Source: a virus
Taxonomy: Duplodnaviria; Caudoviricetes
Length of the DNA: 64,000 nt
Direction: 5' to 3' (one strand)
Virus record (IMG/VR): IMGVR_UViG_3300007622_000004
Location: 1,462 to 65,461 of that record
In this document: piece by piece, positions 14,637 through 20,537 of the stretch
How the letters are laid out: the number at the start of each line of letters is the position of its first letter
Position numbering within the stretch: the first letter of the stretch is position 1
Notes under the pieces: model-generated
Seen by the model: only the letters and a program-made list of their open reading frames with translations
Told to the model about the DNA's origin: nothing
Database searches by the model: none
Position numbers and translations under genes: made by a program

Positions 14637-15113
14637 CCCCACAAGCCTCCAGGCTAATTTAAAAACAAGAAACGGGTACAACCAGCACACCCCCACTATA
14701 AAATGCACCACGCCACCCTACAACAAGTCTGACAAGACTACTACCCCTGGAAGACAACCTTTAAACCCCGCAAAAAAATAAAAATATTTTTCTTTACCCA
14801 ATCCATAGATAATTACTATTAACAAAAAACAACAACAACTATACTTAATACACGGCAGCGAATTTCGCTATCTTAGGACCGTTATAGGTAGAGATTGCAT
14901 CTGAGCAAACTCAGGTGCAATTTCTATATATAGCCCAAAACCAAATAACCCCAAAAATTGAGTATGCATTAAATTATAGCTACACGCATTTTTTTTGTAT
15001 ACCGAAATACCTCTGTCCACCATGGTCAATCCAACCTAATAAAGATTGGAGTGCAAGAATAAGACTATTTAATTCTTGTACACCAATTTGTTGGGGATTG
15101 ATGTGATCTGTGC

Positions 15114-15145
15114 TTGAGTATACATTCTACTCGCCCCCATATAGT
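15114..15145 (+). promoter_or_regulatory. Cassette 1 promoter
   Basis: TTGAGT-N20-TATAGT. Confidence 0.7.
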
Positions 15146-15189
15146 TATAAGTGTAAGGCAATCACGCTTTACCCAAGCAGGAGGCAAAT

Positions 15190-15384
15190 ATGAATAGAGT
15201 TCGGATAATGTTCACAACTATTGACTATGACTTAGTGAATGACCACACTGAGGCACTGATGAGTGCAGGGCGTAAGATAATTGAACTTGAGGAAGCCCTT
15301 ACTGAACACAAGGCGAGATTAGCACAAGGTTTGGCTTCTCGTTCTCAGTATCTCAATGGTGTTATGGAGAACCTTAAGAAGTAA
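15190..15384 (+). CDS. Cassette 1 small coiled-coil protein
   Basis: 64 aa, GGAGG RBS. Confidence 0.8.
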   Translation: MNRVRIMFTTIDYDLVNDHTEALMSAGRKIIELEEALTEHKARLAQGLASRSQYLNGVMENLKK

Positions 15385-15391
15385 TACCAGT

Positions 15392-15423
15392 CCCCCAAGC
15401 CTTCGGGCTTGGGGGATTTCTTT
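15392..15423 (+). terminator. Intrinsic terminator type A
   Basis: CCCCCAAGCC-TTCG-GGCTTGGGGG plus T tract. Confidence 0.85.
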
Positions 15424-15564
15424 ATGCCCCTGAACACTACCCGTTGTGTAGATCCATAGTTGCTGTGTTGAGTGTGTGTGTGCTTTACAAAACACGGTGG
15501 TGTGCGAGAATGCAAATAACAAATTCTTGTGCACCAATGACATGGCTTACATAGTGTTGTGTTG

Positions 15565-15596
15565 TTGAGTATATATTCTATCTCTTATCGTATAGT
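15565..15596 (+). promoter_or_regulatory. Cassette 2 promoter
   Basis: TTGAGT-N20-TATAGT. Confidence 0.7.
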
Positions 15597-15636
15597 AATA
15601 ACTGTAAGCAAACAACAACAACAAAGGAGAACAGTG

Positions 15637-15909
15637 ATGTTCGGATACCGAAAGATAAAGTGGGATAGACCCAACAAGAACACTTGGGTCAGCCCTGACG
15701 GGCTATATGTGATAGATAGACAAGACGCTATCAACTACATAGCCCAAAAGAAAGTGTTCAACACCGAAGTTGGGTGCTTAATATATGATGACCACATTGT
15801 AGCAACACGGTTAAATGGTGCTAAGAAGTGGTGTGATGAATTGTGCGAGAAAGATTACCTACACAATTTACAAGTCCATATCAACCAAACAAGCCGATAC
15901 GGTTCTTAA
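15637..15909 (+). CDS. Cassette 2 hypothetical protein
   Basis: MFGYRKIKW..., AAGGAG RBS. Confidence 0.8.
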   Translation: MFGYRKIKWDRPNKNTWVSPDGLYVIDRQDAINYIAQKKVFNTEVGCLIYDDHIVATRLNGAKKWCDELCEKDYLHNLQVHINQTSRYGS

Positions 15910-15923
15910 AGAAAGGAGAAACA

Positions 15924-16031
15924 ATGGAAATAATTATCTATGACCTGCCATTAGTGGTAGGGCTGATTGGACTTGCTCTAATCGGTATTAAGTTCGCTCA
16001 CGAAATTGGGCGAAGAAAGCAAGGAGAATAA
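15924..16031 (+). CDS. Cassette 2 second gene, 35-aa single-TM peptide
   Basis: MEIIIYDLPLVVGLIGLALIGIKFAHEIGRRKQGE, AAGGAG RBS. Confidence 0.7.
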   Translation: MEIIIYDLPLVVGLIGLALIGIKFAHEIGRRKQGE

Positions 16032-16034
16032 ATT

Positions 16035-16075
16035 AAACCCGAGCACTCACCCTCTGAGTGCTCGGGTTTTTTTTT
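16035..16075 (+). terminator. Intrinsic terminator type B
   Basis: CCCGAGCACTC-N7-GAGTGCTCGGG plus T tract. Confidence 0.85.
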
Positions 16076-16213
16076 GCCCGAACACCATGCTCTATGTAGC
16101 TGGGTAGAACCTATGTTTAGTATATACCTAGTCTCTCAACTTATGTCGGTGTACGAGAGTGCAATTAGCAAACTATTGTGCACCAGCGATAAGGGGTACA
16201 TGATGATTTGTTA

Positions 16214-16245
16214 TTGAGTACATATGCTCTCTCAATCCGTATAGT
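16214..16245 (+). promoter_or_regulatory. Cassette 3 promoter
   Basis: TTGAGT-N20-TATAGT. Confidence 0.7.
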
Positions 16246-16277
16246 GATAAGTGTGAGGCAACAAAGAAAGAGGCAAT

Positions 16278-18228: not shown

Positions 18229-18297
18229 AATAAGTGTAAGGCGCAGTTTGCGTTCTCTTTCTGCGCCTTACACCCACCACTAGCGAAAGGTAAAACA

Positions 18298-18588
18298 ATG
18301 AAGGAAGAAAATAAGTTCACAATGTTGGAACTGCAACTGCAGGAACTGCAGTTAAGTAAAAACGGGATAAAAGACCTAGAGTTGCTCACTGAAAATTGGG
18401 CAGAGCAAGCAAAGATTACCCCCGAAGAAGTTGAGGAAGAGGCCGAAGTAATGGCGTTAATCCTGAACACCGTATCAGCAATAAAGGCGAAGTACCCAAT
18501 AATTCCGATTACTGATATCTTCGTCTTTTTGCTTGACGGTTTACGAGCAAAGTATGAACGAGAAAAGAAAGAAAAAGACAAACAATAA
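18298..18588 (+). CDS. Cassette 7 helical hypothetical protein
   Basis: 96 aa, GAAAGG RBS. Confidence 0.8.
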   Translation: MKEENKFTMLELQLQELQLSKNGIKDLELLTENWAEQAKITPEEVEEEAEVMALILNTVSAIKAKYPIIPITDIFVFLLDGLRAKYEREKKEKDKQ

Positions 18589-18597
18589 TCCCCCAGT

Positions 18598-18629
18598 CCC
18601 CCAAGCCTTCGGGCTTGGGGGATTTTTTT
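18598..18629 (+). terminator. Intrinsic terminator type A
   Basis: Identical UUCG hairpin plus T tract. Confidence 0.85.
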
Positions 18630-18768
18630 GTCCCTGAACTCCTGCGCCTATGTGGGTATGTAGATCCTATGTTGAGTACATCTGTGTTTTACAAATTACG
18701 ACTGGTGTGCGAGAAAGCGATTAGCAATTTCTTGTGCACCAGCGGAACGGTACAATTAATATAATTTA

Positions 18769-18800
18769 TTGAGTATATATTCTTATTCTCACCATATAGT
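18769..18800 (+). promoter_or_regulatory. Cassette 8 promoter
   Basis: TTGAGT-N20-TATAGT. Confidence 0.7.
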
Positions 18801-18849
18801 TATTACTAGTCAAGCAATACCGCTTGACACTGAGAGAAAAGAGTTAGTA

Positions 18850-19143
18850 ATGCTAAAAGTTAACCTTAATGACATCAAGGCTAATCTCGTAACACGGGGC
18901 AGACACCCGTTCACCGATATTGAACTTGAAAAAGCCATTAAAGCACTTGACCCAAAAGTTGACGGCGATGCCTTCATCTATGCCGAGTGCGACCCAACGG
19001 ACGAGAACTACATCGCAGTCAAAGCGAAGTATCGCAACCGTGTAACCACCGTGAGTGGACAACTTGGTATCGCTGTAACAGCCCTTTGGACTGTTGACGG
19101 TCAACTGGTTGTTGGGCTTAAGCAAGTAAAGAAAAAGAAGTAA
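18850..19143 (+). CDS. Cassette 8 basic protein, paralog of cassette 9
   Basis: MLKVNLNDIKANLVTRGRH..KAKYRNRVTT..WTVDGQLVV. Confidence 0.8.
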   Translation: MLKVNLNDIKANLVTRGRHPFTDIELEKAIKALDPKVDGDAFIYAECDPTDENYIAVKAKYRNRVTTVSGQLGIAVTALWTVDGQLVVGLKQVKKKK

Positions 19144-19176
19144 CCCTTACCCCATCAGGGTTACGCAATAACAATT

Positions 19177-19208
19177 AAGGCTCGCAGGTTCGCCTGCGAG
19201 CCTTTTTT
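19177..19208 (+). terminator. Intrinsic terminator type C
   Basis: AAGGCTCGCAGG-TTCG-CCTGCGAGCCTT plus T tract. Confidence 0.85.
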
Positions 19209-19370
19209 GCTGGCGTTCAGTTTTTGCTAATCGCAAATTGAACGCCAGACTACGCTGTACATGATATAAATTGTTTTTAGTACATATTCCGGATACAAAT
19301 TGTGTTGGCGTGCGAAGTGCGACTAGCTAACTTTGTACGCCAATTCATAAGGTAATATTTATATATTATA

Positions 19371-19402
19371 TTGAGTGTATATTCCGATACAAGGCATATA
19401 GT
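19371..19402 (+). promoter_or_regulatory. Cassette 9 promoter
   Basis: TTGAGT-N20-TATAGT. Confidence 0.7.
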
Positions 19403-19451
19403 AATTAGTAGTTAAGCAAATGGTGCTTAACCTGAGAGAAAGACAACAACA

Positions 19452-19751
19452 ATGAAGAAAGTCAATCTGAAAGACATTCAGGGAAACCTTGTCAGTCGTG
19501 GAAGACACGCCTACACAAACCCCGAATTGCAAGAAGCAATCCTTGCGCTTAATCCAGCAGACGAAACTGATGGTTTTGTTTGGGAAGAAGCACAAGGCAA
19601 TCCGAATGACGAAGATTATTCGGCGCACAAAGCAAAATACCGTAATCGTGTCACGACAATTGCAGACCAATTGAAAGTGGCAGTCACTGCTCAGTGGACT
19701 ATTGACGGGCAGTTGGTAGTTGCTTTGGCGAAGAAGTCAAAGCGCAAGTAA
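19452..19751 (+). CDS. Cassette 9 basic protein, paralog of cassette 8
   Basis: MKKVNLKDIQGNLVSRGRH..KAKYRNRVTT..WTIDGQLVV. Confidence 0.82.
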   Translation: MKKVNLKDIQGNLVSRGRHAYTNPELQEAILALNPADETDGFVWEEAQGNPNDEDYSAHKAKYRNRVTTIADQLKVAVTAQWTIDGQLVVALAKKSKRK

Positions 19752-19776
19752 AACCCTTACGGGTATTGGGAATGGG

Positions 19777-19808
19777 AAGGCTCGCAGGCTCGCCTGCGAG
19801 CCTTCTTT
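19777..19808 (+). terminator. Intrinsic terminator type C
   Basis: AAGGCTCGCAGG-CTCG-CCTGCGAGCCTT. Confidence 0.8.
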
Positions 19809-20537
19809 GCTGGAGTTCAATATCTGCTATTCGCATCTTGAACTCCAGCACTGTGGTTTCTATTTATATATTACTTTTAATACATATTACAAATTGTAAT
19901 TACTTTATTCTATTTAAGCGGGTGCTCCAAAAAGAAGATATATCCCTCTTTTTGTACACCCGTTAAAAATAATTTATTAAAGTCTTTACTTTAGTATATG
20001 TTCTTAATTCATATTAAAATACATTTATTAATTTATTATATCTAAATCAAATACTTTTTTAAAGCGTACTCAAATCCTGGCCATAGTCTTACATAAAGGC
20101 TAATGTAAATACTTTGTAAAGAATTCGGGGCAAATTTTTTTTGCTGTATCTATTACTTACAGTTATATCTAGGTAATCTATATGCATATCTTCCCCCAAA
20201 ATTATCGCGCTATATAATTTCAAATGATCTGGTTAATCAGTAGGAAAAATAAACTTTAATTTTTCGGGGATTACAGCGTTGTAATTATGTATTATTCTGT
20301 AGGTAATAGTATGGATAGTTCTAGAGATAGTTCTCTGAACAGAAAAATGTATAATTCCCTCCTCTAAATAATGGTTTTTATATGTATTTATATAATACAA
20401 AAGTAAATAATTAATTAAATACTTCATAATTGGTTTTTACAAAGTGCAAATAGGGTGTTCTCAAATTATGAGCTTTTTGCCTATTTTTATTACTTTTTTA
20501 TATGTTTTATTATAAAATTCGAGCAAAAAAACAAAAA

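Follow-up and report, generated by a model that had tools for sequence, protein, structure and literature searches.

A tandem array of putative small-gene transcription units with a fixed-geometry hairpin leader in a WhiB-encoding phage genome

The window, that is the whole 64-kb stretch of DNA analysed here, is taken from the IMG/VR record IMGVR_UViG_3300007622_000004 (65.5 kb, completeness estimate 63%) and contains a tandem array of small genes with repeated leaders. Nine + strand units at positions 15044–19809 are followed by a decayed tenth leader without cargo, which marks the distal end of the array (Table 1). A unit consists of a hairpin, a spacer, a 15-nt box (TTGAGTAYAYATTCT), the hexamer TATAGT, a Shine-Dalgarno (SD) site, one or two small open reading frames (ORFs), and a strong intrinsic terminator. 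The array closes a + strand block (8438–19751) and faces a convergent minus-strand block. A first-pass annotation of this DNA had described nine units with an identical order of elements. The nine units are real, but their leaders differ in extent, and the decayed tenth leader has to be added. Units 2–8 have an additional upstream half-leader, made of a CTGAAC motif, 38 nt, and a second box without a -10 element. Unit 1 has only a short leader, without the preceding terminator, TTTGCCCCTGAAC, YACTRTGT and the upstream-box part. In unit 9, a second hairpin (19210–19248) and a TTTAGT box take the place of the upstream half-leader; this unit and the decayed tenth leader each hold a second full hairpin and box without a -10. 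Ten independent contigs from other samples and assemblers are colinear with the array and 99.4–100% identical to it, so that it is not an assembly artefact. Three of them (L111–L113) cross the whole array, two of which include both flanks (13001–21500).

The pattern TTGAG[TC]-N20-TATAGT occurs nine times in the 64 kb, on the + strand only, at the promoter boxes of the nine leaders in Table 1. The reversed pattern, used as a control, has no match in the window. Distances from promoter to promoter are 451, 649, 442, 506, 478, 557, 572 and 602 nt. A hidden Markov model built from the nine leaders matches only at the array within the window. With at most one mismatch, the box is confined to unit promoters; a tolerance of two mismatches adds the upstream box (19276) and the promoter box (19371) of unit 9, the decayed leader (19990), and a site at 40907. 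The spacer between hairpin and box is 29 nt in the window leaders (28 nt in unit 8), as first annotated; from the start of the hairpin 3′ arm (TTGTGCACC) to the box the distance is 38 nt, with unit 8 as the exception at 37 nt. The gap from TTGAGT, the hexamer with which the box opens, to the -10 is 20 nt in 9/9 leaders, TATAGT beginning 26 nt past the box start. A TGT(A/C)AGG-type stretch is conserved at the presumed transcription start, and the ribosome-binding sites of the units are of the AGGAG type.

Leaders of relatives were collected by iterated nhmmer seeded with the nine window leaders, a search of the kind proposed in the first-pass annotation, which converged at a set of about 96 full leaders spread over 12 distinct loci. 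Leader copies number 4–11 per locus and share one strand, and all lie downstream of the same flanking gene (13738–14415 in the window), which has 297 relatives in IMG/VR. The TTGnAC motif of the hairpin 3′ arm begins 37–40 nt before the box, mostly exactly 38 nt, in the 12 genomes. TAnnnT is found at box+26/27 in about 95 of the 96 leaders, without a peak at any other offset. Between genomes, identity is about 33% in the hairpin-to-box region and 31% in the box-to--10 spacer, compared with 67% in the box. Other segments are flexible, with about 10 to 80 nt from terminator to hairpin and a 5′ untranslated region (5′UTR) of 20–102 nt. As the leader lengths hold across 12 diverged genomes while neighbouring segments vary, the leader spacing appears to be constrained, and the early impression of a geometry kept despite divergent sequence is borne out well beyond the window. 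A stringent exact leader pattern yielded additional multi-copy contigs. An exact scan of IMG/VR for the window-type leader gave two matches within coding regions, which were discarded as chance.

TAnnnT is the usual type of -10 element in Actinobacteria, and in some genomes it is preceded by a TGn extension. Relative to the predicted start, the box would span about -38 to -24, centred near -31. With TTGAGT 20 nt from the -10, too distant for a normal -35, and an element that is 15 nt long, the arrangement points to an atypical sigma-A or factor-dependent promoter. Judging from this layout, a factor-assisted or otherwise unusual promoter class is likely. No usable -35 is present 16–18 nt from the leader -10, and a consensus promoter scan of the window returned 12 sites, none of them a leader promoter, versus 14.8 ± 3.0 in shuffles. 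Other placements of the promoter were rejected: a second standard promoter in the hairpin 3′ arm (TTGTGC-N17-YATRRT in the window) is not kept in other genomes and gives no second TAnnnT peak; the TTTACA-N16-GAGAAT sites of the scan are present in two units only; and a Bacteroidota-type -33/-7 promoter is at odds with the long spacing and the presence of SD sites and WhiB. The unit carrying cargo F7 (unit 5) was compared with its counterpart in L011, the closest relative. The two units are about 82% identical in nucleotides from TGTCGGGG (about +1) through the ORF and terminator. Upstream of TGTCGGGG, only the box aligns, the leaders being otherwise unrelated. This abrupt onset of homology supports a transcription start just past the -10. 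No published description of a leader of this design was found in the literature searched.

The leader hairpins of the window, of about 37 nt, fold with energies between -16.7 and -25.5 kcal/mol (z-scores relative to shuffles, -2.6 to -6.8); hairpin length ranges from 37 to 45 nt. Covariation was tested on the 12-pair lower stem in a MAFFT alignment of 95 hairpins. The proportion of paired cells was 82.7%, versus 73.0 ± 0.7 in shuffles, none of the 500 reaching the observed value, and 32–47% when partners were slid. Double-sided changes were found in 133 cells, compared with 54 ± 6 in shuffles. Two pairs at the base of the stem alternate between U-A, G-C, C-G and A-U, even inside one genome. 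The hairpin is not considered to be a pair of independent half-sites of a protein-bound palindrome, because such half-sites would not covary in this way. The + strand RNA folds better than its reverse complement in 88 of 96 leaders, by 4.5 kcal/mol on average, and G.T outnumbers A.C in the lower stem (110 versus 35). Since such a sense-strand bias would be useless to a cruciform, the hairpin is expected to fold as a single strand, most likely as sense-strand RNA and less likely as plus-strand DNA. The conservation of a G.A mismatch (columns 17–46 of alignment A1) and of the loop motif (GCNYTAGC or GCTTCAGC) suggests that the hairpin is recognized by a protein. Even the first unit of each array, which has no terminator ahead of it, contains the hairpin, and partial leaders combine it with a box in the absence of a -10; both observations link it to the box and not to a preceding terminator. 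A T-run is missing from the hairpin, and its end lies 26–29 nt upstream of the box and at least about 64 nt ahead of the predicted start.

Terminator-like sites number 25, versus 4.3 ± 2.1 in shuffles, and those of the array fall into three sequence types (A, B and C). Between genomes, 37–50 nt of the terminators are 95–100% identical, which makes them the best-conserved segments of the arrays. With a promoter-like leader, an SD site, an ORF and an intrinsic terminator in each, the units would behave as the expression cassettes that were first proposed. The array of the window has a GC content of 41–43%, compared with about 30% to its right and, as already noticed in the first-pass annotation, a lower value (31–39%) to its left. 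A GC island is found in 12/12 loci (array 42–55%, flanks 29–39%). At third codon positions, the GC fraction is 0.43–0.64 in the cargo and 0.29 in the other genes of the window. Possible reasons for this excess include a host-like codon use in the first-expressed genes or exchange with higher-GC phages.

The cargo comprises 11 ORFs of 35–99 aa in the nine units, encoding small helical, acidic or hydrophobic peptides. None of these ORFs has a match in Pfam or PHROGs, and blastn of the array against cultured phages gave no match. Clustering agrees with the original view that the ORFs are mutually unrelated except in units 8 and 9, all other cargo clusters being distinct within the window. The two exceptions belong to F1, the sole constant cargo. 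Every array carries 2–4 F1 paralogs in tandem at its distal end; they measure about 100 aa, have a basic tail, and follow a terminator type of their own. An F1 profile search recovered only 61 clusters among 1.8 billion representative proteins. F1 has no Pfam domain, its fused forms gave no informative domain, and tblastn found no match. An AlphaFold model (pLDDT 82) has no match in the PDB and resembles uncharacterised phage proteins only. F1 is 49% identical between the window and L011, compared with 94% for the flanking protein, which indicates that F1 evolves fast or is exchanged.

The flank of L011 is 90% identical to that of the window at the nucleotide level. Leaders are 61% identical within a genome versus 41% between genomes, and the leader tree has 21 changes of genome label, compared with 67–73 when labels are shuffled. 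By these measures, the leaders are homogenised within each genome (concerted evolution). The window has the long 'AAGG' leader type, as do L036 and L029; L011 has a short, different type. As leader type conflicts with flank relatedness, whole leader sets must have been replaced or homogenised, the cargo staying orthologous. Orthologous cargo also retains its own 5′UTR and terminator.

Clustering divided the cargo into 22 clusters that are shared and 40 singletons. The order of the shared cargo is roughly maintained, with units that have been inserted, exchanged within one slot, or shifted elsewhere. The position of F11 in L037 differs from that in L029 and L033, and the 35-aa ORF that is the second gene of unit 2 in the window forms a separate first unit in L011. 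Among the 12 related arrays, the breakpoints of this turnover lie at unit boundaries. The swappable cargo initially suspected is thus recovered in the relatives as gain, loss, replacement and relocation of units. It is seen at about 90% identity and below, and not at the strain level, where the ten contigs at 99.4–100% identity are colinear; the variability expected between close relatives is thus found at the former distance only. Likewise, the idea that the leader serves as the recombination handle holds in part. Leaders are similar within a genome, but between genomes they are genome-specific and the terminators (95–100%) are the shared pieces. The near-identical terminators and the 70–85% identical within-genome leaders are plausible substrates for RecA-type recombination, and the window does encode the RecA that had been pointed out (47904–48818).

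More distant complete relatives are not matched by the leader profile, and the syntenic region of Streptomyces phage BillNye has no repeat array. A different, looser array of hairpin and TTTAGT-box units with a period of about 800 nt is found in L021/G002 (16230–17330). There, TAAARTTACA recurs in the leaders and directly at SD sites or start codons, which recalls the start-associated sequences of Cluster K. Contigs of the group often end at or within the array (L012–L014, L022, L024, L041, L114–L116, L119–L120). Since leader and terminator repeats break short-read assemblies, many contigs end there, and such arrays are probably under-represented in virus catalogues.

Metatranscriptome contigs from two independent studies fall in the cargo ORFs of units 1, 2, 4, 5, 6, 8 and 9 and none of these low-depth contigs covers leaders or flanks, whereas DNA runs cover everything. 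These RNA contigs are a weak hint of cassette-wise expression from the -10, and the lack of RNA cover over leaders was judged unusable as evidence. One lake DNA run contains backward joints from 16511 to 15428 and from 18594 to 17465, within exact repeats of 35–40 nt, in low-depth k=31 contigs. They may represent a permuted order (unit 3 ahead of unit 2, unit 7 ahead of unit 6), a tandem duplication, an excised circle, or a repeat-induced mis-join. Another joint, from 16823 to 19865, was judged unusable. A 123-nt exact overlap in one relative, typical of a circular assembly, is the sole terminal repeat that was observed.

The gene set of the window includes portal, head maturation protease, large terminase, DnaE-type polymerase, DnaB-like helicase, primase, ribonucleotide reductase and RecA. 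Domain searches were made in five genomes (G000–G004), namely the window genome and four relatives, of which three are complete (105–109 kb); four of the five are at least 90% complete. Two WhiB genes passing the Pfam cut-off were found in each of the five. Proteins of this type are characteristic of Actinobacteria and of phages infecting them. The pair of genes thus marks the group as actinophages, and whiB serves as a marker of freshwater actinophages (PMC10914622). The five genomes contain no sigma-70 region 2 domain, no Y1 (IS200/IS605-type) transposase and no tyrosine integrase (PF00589); the control search for the last was positive in 14/14 control genomes. A search for T7-type RNA polymerase (PF00940) gave no match, but neither did its control. 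The window derives from a siphovirus of about 105 kb, with WhiB, without integrase, and with an apparently lytic lifestyle. The closest cultured phages are those of the Streptomyces BE cluster (Stanwilliamsviridae), with 42–44% identity in the portal and 37% in DnaE, and with the gene order glycosyltransferase–ribonucleotide reductase–portal in common. Judged by these identities, the relationship is distant. A cyanophage origin, considered on account of a speD-like gene and a 'ferredoxin' PHROG, was abandoned once WhiB turned up in all genomes. Comparison of the phage WhiB protein with GTDB genomes, intended to trace the host lineage, found no relative. The DNA runs containing the sequence are labelled marine, riverine, lake-water and sediment.

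Outside the array, the genes starting at 13738 and 14454 have a TATAAT-like hexamer 6–7 nt upstream of the ATG and no SD site, and an SD-like motif is missing in about half of 42 larger genes checked. This suggests that several non-array genes have leaderless mRNAs, which fits an actinobacterial host. The gene at 14454–14636, which adjoins the array upstream, encodes a conserved Zn-ribbon 'FmdB-like regulator'.

Table 1. Coordinates in the window of the array elements and of the WhiB-like genes.
Feature	Position	Strand	Details
Leader 1 (short form)	15044–15170	+	hairpin 15048–15087, box 15114–15128, -10 TATAGT 15140–15145, predicted start ~15153
Cargo 1, 64-aa ORF, no known family	15190–15384	+	RNA contig X20 15205–15386
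Terminator type A (CCCCCAAGCCTTCGGGCTTGGGGG + T-run)	15389–15425	+	
Leader 2 (long form)	15426–15616	+	CTGAAC, 38 nt, upstream box 15466; hairpin 15499–15535; box 15565; -10 15591
Cargo 2a, 90-aa ORF, cluster F13	15637–15909	+	ortholog in L011, ~75% nt identity
Cargo 2b, 35-aa hydrophobic peptide ORF	15924–16031	+	in L011, ortholog is first unit on its own
Terminator type B (CCCGAGCACTC...GAGTGCTCGGG + T-run)	16035–16075	+	
Leader 3	16076–16265	+	hairpin 16148–16184, box 16214, -10 16240
Cargo 3, 58-aa ORF, cluster F18	16278–16454	+	common to L032
Terminator type A	16481–16517	+	
Leader 4	16518–16707	+	hairpin 16590–16626, box 16656, -10 16682
Cargo 4, ORFs of 38 aa (16717–16833) and 40 aa (16855–16977)	16717–16977	+	second with L011 ortholog; RNA contig X19 16733–16961
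Terminator type B	16981–17020	+	
Leader 5	17021–17213	+	hairpin 17096–17132, box 17162, -10 17188
Cargo 5, 64-aa helical ORF, cluster F7	17225–17419	+	orthologs in L011, L032; RNA contigs X19 17258–17447, X20 17242–17423
Terminator type A	17467–17500	+	
Leader 6	17501–17691	+	hairpin 17574–17610, box 17640 (TTGAGC), -10 17666
Cargo 6, 98-aa acidic ORF, cluster F14	17713–18009	+	protein-level relative in L011; RNA contigs X19, X20
Terminator type A variant	18022–18058	+	
Leader 7	18059–18247	+	hairpin 18131–18167, box 18197, -10 18223
Cargo 7, 96-aa acidic ORF, singleton	18298–18588	+	
Terminator type A	18595–18631	+	
Leader 8	18632–18821	+	hairpin 18704–18740, box 18769 (3′ arm to box 37 nt), -10 18795
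Cargo 8, 97-aa basic ORF, family F1, paralog of cargo 9	18850–19143	+	RNA contigs X19, X20
Terminator type C (GGCTCGCAGG..CCTGCGAGCC + T-run)	19177–19209	+	
Leader 9	19210–19421	+	hairpin 19210–19248, box-only element 19276–19290; hairpin 19305–19343, box 19371, -10 19397
Cargo 9, 99-aa basic ORF, family F1, distal anchor	19452–19751	+	RNA contigs X19, X20
Terminator type C	19777–19809	+	
Decayed tenth leader	19810–20010	+	hairpin 19810–19848, weak box ~19873, hairpin 19920–19961, box-like 19990–20004 without -10
WhiB-like gene 1	34929–35297	-	above Pfam cut-off; counterpart in four related genomes
WhiB-like gene 2	58298–58588	-	above Pfam cut-off; counterpart in four related genomes

Further features were observed around the array and elsewhere in the genomes. 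The block at 14850–14930 is conserved, and about 28 nt within it (14860–14887, minus strand) are 88–100% identical in L018, L021, L028, L034 and L040. This stretch presumably resembles, with one change, helices 69–71 of 23S rRNA (ATAACGGTCCTAAGGTAGCGAAATTC, the region of the I-CeuI site). A 31-nt metatranscriptome contig with a depth of 25,000 matches it, as rRNA would. Rfam searches of the array and of 14820–14950 gave sub-threshold noise only. At 40440–40610, in a 600-nt gap between minus-strand genes, AATTTA-containing repeats with a period of about 11 nt resemble iterons and may be a replication origin; box-like sites without a -10 lie just downstream, at 40818 and 40907. A glycosyltransferase at 50041–51108 (minus strand), beside DnaE, matches the Pfam family 'GT4-conflict' (family 4 glycosyltransferase in conflict systems), and a second one is encoded at 6829–7848; both may have a role in DNA or host-surface modification. 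Tape measure proteins account for the giant ORFs of the complete relatives (1911 and 3676 aa), and the larger ORF was accordingly dropped as a candidate N4-like polymerase. Their lengths differ nearly two-fold, between 3676 aa in L122 (G002) and 1911 aa in L123 (G001), which implies very different tail lengths inside the group.

We consider it probable that the array is a hyperplastic accessory-gene module, made of autonomous transcription units, in a lytic WhiB-encoding freshwater actinophage. In each autonomous unit, host RNA polymerase would start about 7 nt past the actinobacterial-type -10 (TAnnnT; TATAGT), and the transcript, with its variable 5′UTR, strong SD site and one or two small ORFs, would end at the strong intrinsic terminator. 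Pairing of the hairpin appears to be under selection on the sense strand only, the RNA being most likely made by read-through from upstream. Rather more tentatively, and with somewhat less than even confidence, it is proposed that the hairpin insulates the promoter from read-through, or docks a factor acting on the adjacent box. Homogenisation of the leaders within a genome could result from gene conversion, or from selection for one shared trans-factor. Cargo modules (5′UTR, ORF and terminator) would be inserted, lost, replaced and moved by homologous recombination in terminators and leaders, while the conserved pair to quartet of basic F1 proteins of about 100 aa anchors the distal end of every array. 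From the architecture, the cargo is presumed to be small, fast-evolving host-interaction proteins, for takeover or counter-defence.

Several points weigh against this reading. The 20-nt spacing matches no standard sigma-A promoter, and the box is perhaps no -35 at all. Because the leaders of one genome share descent, the counts of covariation and strand bias are not independent. The fixed distance between hairpin and box favours a coupling of the two over a pure read-through insulator, as do the hairpin and box modules without a -10 (19210–19290 and 19810–19887), and the hairpin is not seen in RNA contigs. Shuffling is not fast, since strain-level relatives are colinear, and the joints at terminators, known from low-depth k=31 contigs, are possibly repeat-induced mis-joins.

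An alternative that is unlikely, yet carries real weight, is that the leaders form a dedicated class of middle (delayed-early) promoters. The box would then be bound by a phage activator together with region 4 of sigma-A, the hairpin would be the loading site of the factor, and the array would not be immediate-early. Sigma appropriation by MotA/AsiA of T4 provides the model, and WhiB-like proteins bind region 4 of sigma-A. The activator could be either of the two WhiB-like proteins, the Zn-ribbon protein encoded just upstream (14454–14636), or F1. The position and length of the box, the plain TAnnnT -10 without a usable -35 at 16–18 nt, and the conservation of the box across genomes while the remaining box-to--10 spacer is genome-specific all suit such a promoter. 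So do the two WhiB genes in every one of the five genomes, the conserved Zn-ribbon gene adjoining the array, and the existence of hairpin and box modules without a -10. However, the box is linked to no factor and is nearly confined to the array, no wider regulon being visible in the window, and the codon usage of the GC-rich cargo would suit expression before the phage alters the cell.

More doubtful still is the possibility that hairpin and box, with their fixed spacing and occasional lack of a -10, form a cis module read by a dedicated phage factor that both switches the whole array on and, through its action on the folded sense-strand hairpin, promotes leader-to-leader conversion and cassette exchange; candidates for this factor are the constant basic F1 proteins, a phage WhiB or the adjacent Zn-ribbon protein. 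If true, lytic actinophages would possess a cassette platform that is coupled to transcription and needs no integrase.

It is improbable that the array is a plain tandem duplication, the cargo of which was overwritten later, with a geometry maintained by descent and occasional conversion and a hairpin devoid of function. The leaders are clearly homologous and cluster by genome, and indels are rarer than substitutions, so that spacing can last a while. Against this, the spacings (37–40 and 20–21 nt) are kept over 12 genomes with spacers that are about 31–33% identical, when neighbouring segments vary several-fold. Stem pairing is preserved by compensatory changes to a level well above that of the shuffled and slid controls, and the sense-strand G.U bias is strong. 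Least probable of all is a site-specific cassette system, integron-like or relying on hairpin-guided single-strand transposition with the hairpins as recombination sites that fold in single-stranded DNA and are cut by a dedicated recombinase: the strand-specific imperfect hairpins with covarying stems, conserved G.A mismatch and loop motif, the unrelated small ORFs with their turnover between relatives, and the contig joints going back at unit boundaries would fit it, but tyrosine recombinase and Y1 transposase are both absent from the five genomes, every unit has its own promoter-like site and terminator, homology breaks at the predicted transcription start and terminators and not at the hairpin, and the array is stable in the ten strain-level contigs.

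Compared with known systems, the array, read as a module of autonomous units, works like the promoter-early stem-loop (PeSL) regions of T4 and SPO1's host-takeover module, yet is a member of neither, so that the analogy drawn in the first-pass annotation stands for the way of working and not for the defining features. PeSL cassettes are known from T4-type phages (Arbiol et al. 2010, PMC2839356; Comeau et al. 2014, PMC4122927). As in the array, ORFans of hyperplastic regions are preceded by repeated promoter, stem-loop and terminator motifs, at which close relatives have insertions, deletions and replacements; the stems contain G-T pairs, and an SD site and start codon follow. PeSL promoters conform to the sigma-70 consensus (16–18 nt), whereas 9/9 leaders of the array combine a 20-nt spacing with a 15-nt box. 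A single PeSL stem-loop overlaps or abuts the -35/-10 and terminates, whereas the terminator of the array is separate, 10–80 nt upstream of the leader hairpin, and the second, covarying hairpin is at a fixed 37–40 nt upstream of the box. The leaders of the array are moreover genome-specific and homogenised, and belong to a siphovirus of an actinobacterial host. Recombination between PeSL copies yields mini-circles; the array offers two low-depth k=31 backward joints at shared terminators, for which a mis-join is possible.

The SPO1 module (Stewart et al. 1998; summarised in PMC6873191) consists of small genes in short operons, each with a strong promoter and a strong ribosome-binding site, and mostly of unassigned function. 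The array is similar in that its small genes are clustered and every unit has a promoter-like site and a strong ribosome-binding site (nine units, 11 ORFs). The SPO1 module lies in the terminal redundancy, its early promoters are of the standard sigma-A kind, and shut-off of host processes by its products is established. The array is known from sequence alone, and its leader is a long structured repeat.

The nearest actinophage precedent is provided by the start-associated sequence (SAS) and ESAS repeats of Cluster K mycobacteriophages, the function of which is likewise not assigned (Pope et al. 2011, PMC3203893). They combine an imperfect inverted repeat with a conserved motif, are intergenic and upstream of many genes, and have a genome-specific consensus. 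However, the 13-bp SAS is at the start codon, the ESAS is a 17-bp inverted repeat (spacer 4–13 bp) immediately upstream, and both are scattered over the genome. The array is a single tandem array with terminators, in which a promoter-like site separates the hairpin from a start codon lying about 100 nt or more downstream, and conservation ahead of the start codons is limited to the SD site. Integron arrays resemble it in their tandem unrelated small ORFs and in the imperfect, strand-specific attC hairpins that keep structure more than sequence. Integrons have an adjacent IntI and promoterless attC cassettes, whereas the array is without integrase, its cassettes have a promoter and a terminator, and homology breakpoints lie away from the hairpin. 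The virion RNA polymerase promoters of N4 differ in having a short DNA hairpin centred about 12 nt before the start and a giant polymerase, the giant ORFs found here being tape measures.

Freshwater Actinobacteria are among the most abundant lake bacteria, and to our knowledge their phages are almost wholly uncultured. The array flags, by sequence alone, a compact and highly expressed-looking set of small genes with fast turnover, and its cargo is a natural place to search for host-takeover or counter-defence functions in freshwater actinophages. The leader is unusual in combining a covarying sense-strand hairpin, an exact spacer, an atypical box and a -10, and in keeping its geometry although leader sequences are rewritten in concert across genomes. 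The array thus offers a natural system for actinobacterial promoter architecture, for the concerted evolution of regulatory repeats, and for phage gene exchange outside the T4 paradigm.

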